A stretch of 64,000 nt of DNA, from IMG/VR virus record IMGVR_UViG_3300049846_002100, positions 1 through 64,000 of that record; one strand, 5' to 3'. Source of the DNA: a virus. The notes under the pieces are model-generated. The model was not told the DNA's origin and did not search any database. It was given only the letters and a program-made list of their open reading frames with translations. Each line of letters begins with the position of its first letter. Position 1 is the stretch's first letter. Below are positions 42,259 to 44,218 of the stretch, in pieces. A program made the position numbers and the translations under genes.

Positions 42259-42326
42259 CGTGGGTTCCTGCGGGTTAGGTAGGCGCGAAGCGCTCAGCCT
42301 GGCTGACTTATCAATGGAACTTCGCA

Positions 42327-43094
42327 GTGATTGAATGGACGACCTACCTCCAGCTTCCATTTATGGACCAACTCACGTTGACCATGGGAAGCGCAGAAGG
42401 GGCCCTAAAAACGGCCGCCAAGTTGGTAGGGGTATCCGAATCTGAGTATCGGCGCCGGATTCAGACGGAGAAGTGGTGCTCCTTCTGCAAGGACTGGCGA
42501 ACCCTCAACCTTTTCACAAAAGATCGTTCCCGCTCGGACGGTCTCAGTACCGTTTGCCAGGTGTGTCGTTCAACGCGATGTGCGCGAGACCGGCCTCGTC
42601 GACGGGAACGCGAACAACGGCCTGTGTTGAACGAGAAGATGCGTGAATGGAAAGCAAAACACCCCGAGAAGGTGGCACAAACACAAGCAACGTACAGGGC
42701 TGCCCATCGCGAGGCTTTGAATGAAATGCAAAAGGCACGATACAGGACGGATCCGGAACGACACAAGGAGACATCGCGCCGGAGCCGTCTCGCCAAGTTC
42801 GCCCACTACTTGGTGGTGTGAATCAAGAGGAGGGCCAAAGAACGTGGGATTGCATTCAACTTAGAGCCGTCGGACATCGTGCTCCCTGAGCGGTGTCCTA
42901 TCCTCGGAATCGAGTTGACTCCTACCGGGAGAGGGCAAAGAGACAGCGCCCCCAGTTTAGATCGCATACGACCGGAAGAGGGGTATGTAAGGGGCAACGT
43001 TCAGATCATCTCGATGCGAGCCAACCGAATCAAGAACGACGCCACGGTCGACGAACTCGAAAAGGTCTTGGCGTTTATGAGGAGAGGCAAATGA
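42327..43094 (+). pseudogene. HNH homing endonuclease interrupted by in-frame TGA at 42819-42821
   Basis: KWCSFCK...DGLSTVCQVC, then LVV*IKRRAKERGIAFNL...CPILGIEL...SLDRIRPEEGYVRGNVQIISMRANRIKND in one frame. Confidence 0.85.
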
Positions 43095-44218
43095 CAACAG
43101 CCACCGACATAAAGTGGAGTTCATACTTAGGGTGGGAGGGTCCGTTCTTCGCCGGTCTCCCTCAGGCCAAGTTCAAGTTGCCTCCCAATCCGACGGATGC
43201 CTGGCGAGTGCTGGCGGTTGTCGTGGCTGCGGAGGGCGGCAACCTGTCGGCGATCAACGGTTACGACCGAATGATCCTGTCTGCTGGAGCTATCCAATCC
43301 GGAGAAGCTGGCCTCTTCGGGGTTTCGGAGCTTCTCGGGGCGATCCTGACCGCCAAGCCGTCCCTCCGGGATCGACTACAACCCTGCTTGGACGCCTCGG
43401 ACGCAGAGTTCAAGCAGCGACCCGACGGACGTTGGCGGTTCTTTTTCCGGGACACGCGAAGCGAGGTCAACACAATCCCCGAACAACAACAGCTCTTCAG
43501 GCTGCACGCCACCGGGGAAAAAGGCACGTGGGACGACGCCTCCAAGGAACACGCAAAGGCGTGGGCCGCTGCGGTAGCCGATGTCCTCGCGGATACAGAT
43601 GTACAGTCAGTTCAGATCGAGTGGACACTCCCGCGGCTGTACACGTACGCGCTCAAGGATGCGAAGACCCTCCTCTTCGGACCCAACGAGCCGCAAAACA
43701 ACGATAGTTGGGTCGGAGTGGCGCGAGCCATCTTCTTGTCCTTCGCCGTCAACCTACCTGCGGTTGCTTCAGCACAGCTCGTCGAATACACGCAGAACGC
43801 AACGGAGCCCAAGTGGTCGCGTGAGTGGACCATCGGACTCTGCCGACAGCTTGTGTTTGGGCCGAAGATCGCAATCTACCCGCGCCGCTGGAACGACAAA
43901 CGGCCCGTGCTCGAAGCGGCCTATGGTGTCGATCTTCCCGACTTTGCGGCCGACCTGGAAAAGTGGCGCAAAGAGAACGACATCGAAGAGCCCACACCAG
44001 GTGGGCCCCCCGACTTCACGGACACGAAGACGATCCAAGAGGAGCTTCTAGCTGCTGGTCTGGACCTCGGCCCCGCTGGAGCTGACGGCCTCTACGGCAA
44101 CGCGACTCGCGCCGCCGTGAGGACCTTTCAGCAGATGAACGGGATCGAGGTCACGGGCTCAGTTGGCCCGTTGACGCGGAAGAAGCTCGTCGAGCGGTGG
44201 CTTGAGCGCCACCGTTGA
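43091..44218 (+). CDS. Endolysin-like protein: lysozyme-like domain plus C-terminal PG-binding domain
   Basis: AEGGNLSAINGYD..LSAGAIQ; ADGLYGNATRAAVRTFQ...TGSVGPLT; ATGA-coupled start. Confidence 0.75.
   Translation: MTTATDIKWSSYLGWEGPFFAGLPQAKFKLPPNPTDAWRVLAVVVAAEGGNLSAINGYDRMILSAGAIQSGEAGLFGVSELLGAILTAKPSLRDRLQPCLDASDAEFKQRPDGRWRFFFRDTRSEVNTIPEQQQLFRLHATGEKGTWDDASKEHAKAWAAAVADVLADTDVQSVQIEWTLPRLYTYALKDAKTLLFGPNEPQNNDSWVGVARAIFLSFAVNLPAVASAQLVEYTQNATEPKWSREWTIGLCRQLVFGPKIAIYPRRWNDKRPVLEAAYGVDLPDFAADLEKWRKENDIEEPTPGGPPDFTDTKTIQEELLAAGLDLGPAGADGLYGNATRAAVRTFQQMNGIEVTGSVGPLTRKKLVERWLERHR

Follow-up and report, generated by a model that had tools for sequence, protein, structure and literature searches.

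Why does the reading frame of an HNH endonuclease gene, lying directly in front of a phage lysin gene, open with residues that resemble the beginning of that very lysin? The question is raised by a locus in the 64,000-nucleotide stretch of DNA analysed here (the window), which comprises positions 1 to 64,000 of the IMG/VR virus record IMGVR_UViG_3300049846_002100. A first-pass annotation, made from the DNA letters alone, had proposed that this HNH pseudogene starts with the old N-terminus of the endolysin. Shortly before the HNH gene, at the place where the lysin start is expected, we found a diverged copy of roughly the first 13 codons of the lysin (Table 1). Judging from the comparisons presented below, this copy, referred to as the stub, is very probably a displaced lysin start that was fused to a now dead HNH homing endonuclease gene (HEG).

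The stub at the head of the HNH frame

From the ATG at 42314-16, the codons GAA CTT CGC AGT GAT are followed by TGA (MELRSD*), while the frame of a GTG at 42327 reads ATT GAA TGG ACG ACC TAC CTC CAG CTT CCA TTT (IEWTTYLQLPF) and runs into the HNH gene. From ATG to TGG, the stub counts 22 nt and the lysin 24 nt, and an addition of 2 nt places the stub in exact register with the lysin start, MTTATDIKWSSYL at 43091. A gap of 2 nt was set at this very spot by MAFFT, unprompted, when the stub was aligned with six other lysin 5' ends (alignment A4). The proposal that restoring 2 nt at about 42330 gives exact register from ATG 42314 is thus borne out, and the codons previously given for the working start (ATG 43091, then ACA ACA GCC ACC GAC ATA AAG TGG AGT TCA TAC TTA) were likewise recovered. 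IEWTTYLQLPF could be read directly, as had been stated, but the accompanying description of its codons as ending in G or C was overstated, holding for only 6 of the 11. An extension of the stub to the PF of lysin codons 18-19 is uncertain. The divergent upstream gene starts at 42258, leaving 55 nt of intergenic DNA before the stub ATG, and at the HNH-less locus L005 the divergent gene lies 63 nt from the lysin ATG; the position of this gene fixes the expected place of the native lysin start. The segment 42270-42859, which contains both the stub and the in-frame TGA of the HNH gene, recurs with 0 differences in X2 record 6, a contig that stems from another sample and another study, so that neither feature is an error of one assembly.

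The working lysin, whose start reads MTTATDIKWSSYLGWEGPF, aligns with its homologues from residue 1, and the closest of them cover 99-100% of it, indicating that the host gene is full length and in frame. A total of 259 homologues were retrieved at E<=0.001; among the best 120 of these, coverage of the query is 85-100%, with a single homologue falling below 96%. The N-terminal W..Y motif is indeed a feature of this family: W9 and Y12 are present in 118 of 119 homologues (among the best 120 of the 259), and W9, Y12, G17, and G22 are invariant in an alignment of 41 lysin sequences. On the side of the endonuclease, 0 of 119 other homologues, among the matches listed, carry W..Y within their first 25 residues. 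Taken together, these counts assign the motif to the lysins and leave the stub without a counterpart in the HNH homologues. The central contention of the first-pass annotation, that the HNH frame begins with a displaced lysin 5' remnant, is supported by both counts and by a twin locus, L127, which is described below. Position 10 of the lysin is Gly in 100 of 119 homologues, whereas the lysin clade of the window has W-S-x-Y and the stub W-T-T-Y; the shared non-Gly residue after W speaks for kinship between the stub and this clade.

We were curious to know how readily such a match might arise by chance. To this end, the N-termini of 119 lysin homologues, not including the lysin of the window, were condensed into a log-odds profile. 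For residues 7-14, the stub ranks 3rd among 177,836 six-frame positions of the 88.9-kb genome, with one chance match above it, and for three other profile blocks it ranks 6th, 11th, and 8th. In a frameshift-aware profile of residues 1-13 (both strands, five indel offsets) it ranks 6th, or 3rd when true-start placements are disregarded. M1 and D6 of the stub agree with the profile, but residues 1-6 score -1.19 bits and make no contribution. Smith-Waterman comparison of the stub with the window's own lysin gave S=29, with p=0.004 in the 66 nt that directly precede the HNH ATG. By itself, the stub thus amounts to a moderate signal, p being ~0.001-0.004 at a specified place. Using the same profile, an off-frame match (EIGWTSYR, 20.5 bits) was detected at 917-940 of locus L017, inside a conserved gene of 574 residues; we dismissed it as a false positive on account of this setting, and it serves to gauge the strength of chance matches.

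That the HNH gene carries an N-terminal extension which merely happens to contain W-x-x-Y-L is, in our judgement, very improbable. The pairwise score is unremarkable in a wide window, and the L017 match proves that the profile does give false positives, but at the place specified the probability of a chance match is low and the ATG stands in register, while the extension is absent from the other HNH homologues listed. Moreover, the same layout is unmistakable at L127 and at four further loci, and is found twice more in this genome.

The HNH frame itself is broken by one in-frame TGA and shows no frameshift. An Arg occupies the TGA column in the closest homologue, P0122 (76% identical), as well as in L127, L129, and P0134, which makes CGA>TGA the simplest reading; since TGA also terminates the HNH and lysin genes, it acts as a stop codon in this genome. 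The designation as a pseudogene was thus well founded, the TGA standing where P0122, L127, and L129 have Arg. When the protein was read through with X at the stop, it matched phrog_3322 'endonuclease' (E 9.1e-34, the best stretch, residues 133-253, spanning the TGA), phrog_1035 'endonuclease VII' (E 3.8e-27), and phrog_3118 'HNH endonuclease' (E 2.9e-09); the family assignment derives from these PHROG profiles, whose names are at annotation level. No match to the Pfam HNH models was obtained even at E<=10 for the window protein, L127, L129, P0122, or P0131. The best PDB profile match is PacI (3LDY), a restriction enzyme, with which the ...DR...GY..N......N.IK.. motif and the N-terminal CxxC...CxxC finger align, although the match is not significant (E 0.81). 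An HTH-like (helix-turn-helix-like) stretch was noted by eye at about 42402-42461, followed by the finger at 42477-42566. In alignment A2, the HNH homologues begin at this finger (about residue 48 of the window protein) or later, and ATG 42363 or ATG 42384 may have been the HEG's own start.

Stubs at related HNH loci and within the genome

A metagenome scan with P0122 returned 80 loci. An HNH homologue (50-51% identical to P0122) stands directly before a lysin gene and overlaps its start at two loci, L127 and L129, the lysins of which are 39-40% identical to that of the window. At L127, an intact HNH of 179 residues is flanked by a stub reading MVQASEIGWG*YR and by the working lysin start MVKPSEIAWGQYK. 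This stub is preceded by a GGAGAG ribosome site, stands 70 nt ahead of the HNH ATG, and ends at about the same codon as the stub of the window. Its score of 22.3 bits is the 3rd highest among 3.0 million positions (1.5 Mb of HNH loci), after two true lysin starts, and the next matches reach 17.3 and then at most 14.5 bits.

The comparison was extended to HNH genes in front of other genes. From 241 HNH loci and the window, 102 non-redundant HNHs with an abutting downstream open reading frame (ORF) were obtained, and the first 40 residues of the downstream gene were compared with the 345 nt upstream of the HNH, using about 100-200 random segments of the same locus as a control. HNH copies with identical matched DNA, loci without an abutting ORF of at least 80 residues, and loci with too little flank were left out, and the window was tested separately, because the TGA cuts its ORF and the upstream region of the systematic test would thus fall inside the HNH. 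Upstream similarity to the N-terminus of the downstream gene was found at p<=0.01 for 8 of the 102 HNHs, and five of these are unambiguous. Three stubs derive from ThyX genes, namely those of L226 (47 codons, z 39), L183 (23 codons, z 21, abutting the HNH ATG), and L205 (22 codons, z 17), and those of L183 and L205 terminate at the same conserved ThyX motif. At L216, where the downstream gene encodes a DNA-polymerase 3'-5' exonuclease, the stub (12 codons, z 11) forms the N-terminus of the HNH itself by in-frame fusion, an arrangement also seen in the window; the fifth case is L127 (z 8). At all five loci, the HNH frame extends over the working start of the host gene. Members of this HNH family are canonically placed immediately 5' of the start of their target, with their frame reading into the first codons of the latter.

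Several weaker candidates were rejected in the course of this comparison. The alignment at L066 (z 6.4) is of acidic low complexity, while L222 (S 35) and an SNF2-helicase group (S 30-33, p 0.006-0.04) were too weak to be counted. A different kind of remnant was seen at L021, where a frameshifted pseudo-copy of about 250 nt (3692-4000) corresponds to lysin codons 1 to about 72 and is 39% identical over 49 residues. It lies directly before an intact lysin gene (ATG 4001), and a direct repeat of about 28 nt that seems to flank the junction was noted by eye at approximately 3913-3987.

A second allele of the window's locus co-occurs in two samples (runs X1 and X2; 42270-42924). It differs by 30 substitutions and 5 indels in 42270-42500, and its stub carries 11 substitutions in 29 nt (42326-42354) but has the same ATG and the same 22-nt spacing from ATG to TGG, from which it follows that the frameshifted stub is older than the split of the two strains. 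In the middle of the HNH gene, 402 nt (42501-42902) are replaced by 408 unalignable letters. Run X4 contains only two contigs of 151 nt from the stretch, and neither this run nor the parts left uncovered by run X3 entered into the conclusions.

Comparable arrangements were observed at two other places in this genome. A lysin gene with M15 and PG_binding_1 domains (54508-55335) terminates in ...DGMHFELCE, and a GIY-YIG domain gene (Pfam E 8.6e-11), itself broken by a TAG near 55590, starts on its stop codon (GTGA, 55332). The C-terminal motif of this lysin recurs as DSMHFELAE at 55964-55990 (Smith-Waterman S=39, p=0.0005). The whole case (55290-56008) is the C-terminal mirror of the HNH/lysin stub. 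Upstream of the dNMP kinase gene (GTG 39660; Pfam DNMK), decayed P-loop N-termini (VGITGTSGCG.., KIIGISAG) are found within 39413-39720 (Smith-Waterman S=35, p=0.006 for the N-terminal repeat), together with an HTH-like relic ORF whose stop overlaps the first codons of the live gene.

Origin of the two starts and route of entry

The stub and the working copy share 57-72% of their nucleotides and 57-83% of their residues over six loci; in the window, where seven ungapped codons can be compared, 57% of nucleotides and 57% of residues match. Most differences sit at third codon positions, and they include codon-box switches for Ser, Arg, and Leu. When the six loci are pooled, synonymous differences are seen in 57 codons and non-synonymous ones in 30, compared with 12.2 and 74.5 expected from neutral decay of the working copy to the same divergence, and a count of 57 was reached in none of 5000 simulations. 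Taken singly, five loci are significant (at most 10 of 5000 simulations). For the pooled loci, the mostly synonymous differences and the lack of near-identical pairs indicate that the two copies diverged under selection in separate lineages and were joined later.

These data bear directly on a local partial duplication, for example by replication slippage at HEG insertion, whereby both copies would be native and would have diverged afterwards. Such an origin requires no second lineage and agrees with the clade-typical residues common to both copies, yet we consider it improbable. Neutral decay of a redundant copy does not produce the synonymous excess seen in the pooled set (for the window alone, the codon test has no power), and no stub among the six exceeds 72% nucleotide identity, though young duplicates would be the easiest to detect. 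In a separate comparison, the lysins of L127 and L129 were found to be more alike at their N-termini (15 of 22 residues identical) than in the body (122 of 271), which we considered as a possible sign of a travelling start; however, N-terminal identity is also high towards HNH-less lysins (L127-L031 12/22, L127-L027 13/22), and the comparison is hence uninformative.

We propose the following course of events, the whole of which, including the import of the working start, we rate at slightly better than even. A free-standing HEG of a PacI-like HNH family would have entered the lysin 5' end after its endonuclease cleaved a lysin allele devoid of the HEG, at codons 13-19 or slightly further on, within the conserved W-x-x-Y coding stretch. 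The break would have been repaired from a HEG-bearing donor with homology on the lysin side only, copying running leftwards through the donor's lysin start and then its HNH gene, and the copied tract would have been joined illegitimately to the broken end of the recipient, which kept its own first codons. As a result, the old start would remain at the position of the old promoter and ribosome site, fused to the HNH frame, followed by the HNH gene and then by the replacement start, from which the lysin would now be translated through ATGA coupling. The imported tract may have comprised anything from 13 codons to the whole lysin. More speculatively, a replacement start that differs at most wobble positions would remove the target of the endonuclease, and the same differences would make it harder for the two copies to recombine and thereby eliminate the HEG. 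The HEG itself decayed later, by CGA>TGA in the HNH and by the loss of 2 nt in the stub.

Mobility of this HNH family can be seen among relatives. L129, which carries the HNH, and L027, which lacks it, are collinear sister taxa on the lysin tree, and their nucleotide identity reaches 72.6% on the left side, as far as the HNH ATG, and 75.7% on the right side, starting 9 nt ahead of the lysin ATG. Between these flanks, about 530 nt with the HNH (L129 9923-10480) replace 35 nt (L027 3957-3991), just 5' of the lysin ribosome site. Lacking a stop of its own, the L129 HNH passes the lysin ribosome site and is terminated by a TGA that lies out of frame within lysin codons 5-6. At its other side, the L129 insertion takes the place of the final codons of the upstream gene, and the frame of that gene then continues for 130 nt within the HNH. 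This HNH was not found within 4 kb of the lysin at any of 44 viral lysin loci, and the three HNH-bearing lysins fall in three separate places of a tree built by a quick method (Shimodaira-Hasegawa-like approximate likelihood ratio test support, SH-aLRT, >=95), amounting to 3 state changes. The sporadic presence typical of a free-standing HEG is displayed by these relatives, on which it was tested. A DNA search of a phage collection and a viral scan with the lysin protein yielded no close relatives of this phage, and the contig of P0122 was not returned by the viral or metagenome scans.

Instead of being assembled at this locus, the stub, the HNH, and the replacement start may have arrived together by two-sided homing as a ready-made unit, the stub being a passenger of an older event. 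In keeping with this, the window's stub is as diverged as the copies at other loci and is already frameshifted, the co-occurring strain shares its ATG and spacing despite the substitutions described above, and the clade-typical non-Gly residue after W is found in both the stub and the working copy. We nevertheless regard a ready-made unit as unlikely, because the stub is situated 55 nt from the divergent gene, where the native start would be, and because relatives differ in the stretch from the dNMP kinase gene to the lysin, so that two-sided homing would find little homology on its left side.

Group I introns with genes for HNH proteins occur in the lysin genes of some staphylococcal phages, and the stub might accordingly be exon 1 of a lysin interrupted by an HNH-bearing intron or intein. 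This explanation can practically be set aside. No Rfam family was detected in 41800-44400 at E<=1. The lysin is equipped with a Shine-Dalgarno sequence and an ATG of its own, its N-terminus is complete and can be aligned with homologues from the first residue, and the stub is frameshifted in the window and stop-bearing in L127.

The first-pass annotation had further argued that codon style marks the stub as native and the working start as imported. Codons 2-13 of the working start do include codons that are rare for this genome (ACA twice, ATA, AGT, TCA, TTA), and codons 2-20 are matched or undercut by only 2.1% of 24,341 windows of 19 codons and by 3 of 57 ORF starts. However, in 42 HNH-less lysin loci the G+C content at third codon positions (GC3) of codons 2-13 is on average 0.11 below that of the gene body (standard deviation 0.19), and a dip as deep as that of the window (-0.25) or deeper occurs in 7 of the 42. 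The start is thus an outlier within its genome, but the argument fails this control, and we abandoned codon style as a diagnostic of import.

A number of further observations weigh, together with this one, against the displacement and import of a lysin start as set out above. The stub of the window is weak when taken alone (Smith-Waterman p=0.13 in the 345-nt upstream window), and its codons differ by 2 synonymous and 3 non-synonymous changes in 7, which 437 of 5000 neutral simulations match. Detection of the stubs relied on protein similarity and thus inflates the synonymous excess. The working start is similar to those found elsewhere in its own clade, so that any donor must have been a close relative, or else this start is the native one. 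At L129, neither the profile scan nor inspection by eye revealed a stub, and its working start is as similar to that of L027 as the flanks are, from which it follows that an imported start is no rule for this HNH family. The divergence of the second allele within the stub is uneven, the codons TGG, ACC, TAY, and CTC being kept amid its many substitutions. The lysin 5' pseudo-copy of L021 occurs without any HEG; such remnants can therefore arise or persist without one, and this case may represent either a HEG that has since been lost or a HEG-independent gene replacement. Finally, microhomology at the junction could not be demonstrated in the comparison of L127 with L129/L027: the candidate TACCGC (L127 stub end versus L129/L027 left flank) was rejected, as 1889 and 1699 of 5000 shuffles were as good and 53% of other 43-mers score as high.

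Locus layout and relation to known systems

The features of the locus are collected in Table 1. The TGA stop of the HNH (43092-94) overlaps the lysin ATG at 43091.

Table 1. Coordinates of the stub, the HNH gene, the lysin gene, and the divergent neighbour in the window
Feature	Position	Strand	Basis
Upstream divergent gene, 605 residues, with a Zeta_toxin-like P-loop domain	40441..42258	-	PF06414, E 1.4e-05
Stub, part 1: ATG and five codons (MELRSD), then TGA; putative old lysin codons 1-6	42314..42334	+	
Stub, part 2, in the HNH frame: IEWTTYL(QLPF); putative old lysin codons 7-13	42330..42362	+	
HNH gene, N-terminal part: HTH-like stretch, CxxC...CxxC finger, basic linker	42363..42818	+	
In-frame TGA nonsense codon breaking the HNH gene	42819..42821	+	
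HNH gene, C-terminal catalytic part (...SLDRIRPEEGYVRGNVQIISMRANRIKND...)	42822..43094	+	phrog_3322, phrog_1035, phrog_3118
Working lysin gene, 375 residues: N-terminal domain without Pfam family and C-terminal PG_binding_1	43091..44218	+	homologue alignment
Working lysin codons 2-13, counterpart of the stub	43094..43129	+	codon usage, stub comparison

The source record in IMG/VR is linear, comprises 88,941 nt, of which the window is the first 64 kb, and has a CheckV completeness estimate of 18%; its GC content is about 59-60%, and it contains several very large ORFs. Homologues of the lysin are carried by viral contigs of up to 437 kb. The PG_binding_1 domain of the lysin was recognised at residues 311-366 (E 3.2e-15), and both the PHROG 'endolysin' matches and the PDB match 4NSO cover this binding domain only. 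The N-terminal 300 residues (43091-43990) match no Pfam family, although their homologues in large phages number in the hundreds. Two residues of this N-terminal domain, E48 and D59, are invariant, and weak Atlas leads for it point to VgrG3-C and GH46-like clusters (score 0.82).

A promoter scan of 42100-44400 did not find a sigma-70-like site. The motif GGTRTA occurs 41 times in the whole window, compared with 18.3 expected (standard deviation 4.5), and none of 100 shuffles reached 41; no copy lies in 41207-45720, that is, near the stub, the HNH, or the lysin. On the minus strand at 18394-18549, a weak HNH-like relic with an internal TAG is 35% identical to residues 84-135 of P0122 (E 2.7e-6).

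The endonucleases of the mobile endonuclease ORFs (mORFs) of fungal mitochondria are of the LAGLIDADG or GIY-YIG type. The mORF 'gene hybrids' of fungal mitochondria, as portrayed in the passages of PMC3630166 devoted to them, include atp6 of Allomyces macrogynus and atp6, atp9, cox2, and nad3 of Glomus sp.; there, the mORF arrives with a foreign C-terminal piece, and the native C-terminus stays downstream. Among the systems described, this one comes nearest to the window: in both, an endonuclease ORF is accompanied by a replacement terminal piece, the host gene stays whole, and the native end persists as a remnant. In the hybrids, the piece brought in and the native one resemble each other far more at the protein level than at the DNA level (PMC3630166), and in the six loci studied here the corresponding figures are 57-83% and 57-72%. 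The hybrids concern C-termini in organelles, with the remnant downstream, and the word 'N-terminal' is absent from that paper, whereas the window concerns an N-terminus, with the remnant upstream and fused to the frame of the endonuclease, an HNH enzyme, and a phage. Their direct C-terminal analogue in this genome is the GIY-YIG/M15 case at 55290-56008. The layout described here mirrors this known 3'-end route of fungal mitochondria, now at phage 5' ends.

With regard to mechanism, one-sided homing in T4, with illegitimate repair of the break at microhomology, is outlined in the relevant section of PMC2988022. There, as in the proposed course of events, homology on one side suffices and the other junction is illegitimate, but the T4 work relied on engineered intron-homing crosses, whereas the present case consists of natural genome footprints at whose junctions no microhomology could be demonstrated. 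Free-standing HEGs that split genes are treated in the same source, namely mobE in Aeh1 nrdA, mobA in the T4 topoisomerase gene, and a seg-like gene in gene 43 of phage 25 (PMC2988022). These resemble the window in that a free-standing endonuclease gene lies within the coding region of a conserved phage gene whose function is kept. They differ in that two polypeptides reassemble and nothing is duplicated, while in the window the whole protein would be made from a second start and the old piece discarded. Full-text literature searches found no description of a replaced N-terminus beside a HEG in a phage, the excerpted text of PMC10448857 being without bearing on the matter.

As a tentative extension, which we would put at short of an even chance, the widespread PacI-like HNH family may enter the 5' ends of genes (lysin, ThyX, polymerase exonuclease) as 'start-swap' cassettes that recode the start of the host gene. 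If this is true, the endonuclease ORF would borrow the old promoter, ribosome site, and first codons of the host gene, while the synonymous recoding would keep the host protein whole, confer self-immunity, and suppress loss of the HEG. The stubs would then mark natural cleavage or insertion sites, and the targets of HEGs from uncultured phages would be readable from metagenomes.

HEGs are usually thought to enter coding regions only under the shield of an intron or intein or by splitting genes. The loci described here would add a third route of entry, at the 5' ends of phage genes, which recurs at five or more additional metagenomic loci and is seen three times within a single phage genome. 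Their stubs would be natural footprints of one-sided homing, in which the break falls at or after a defined codon, and hence lead to testable predictions of target sites. For annotation, short 'N-terminal extensions' on phage HNHs, and small ORFs just upstream of them, may be displaced starts of host genes. In this way, the first codons of essential phage genes may be exchanged between lineages along with a selfish gene.

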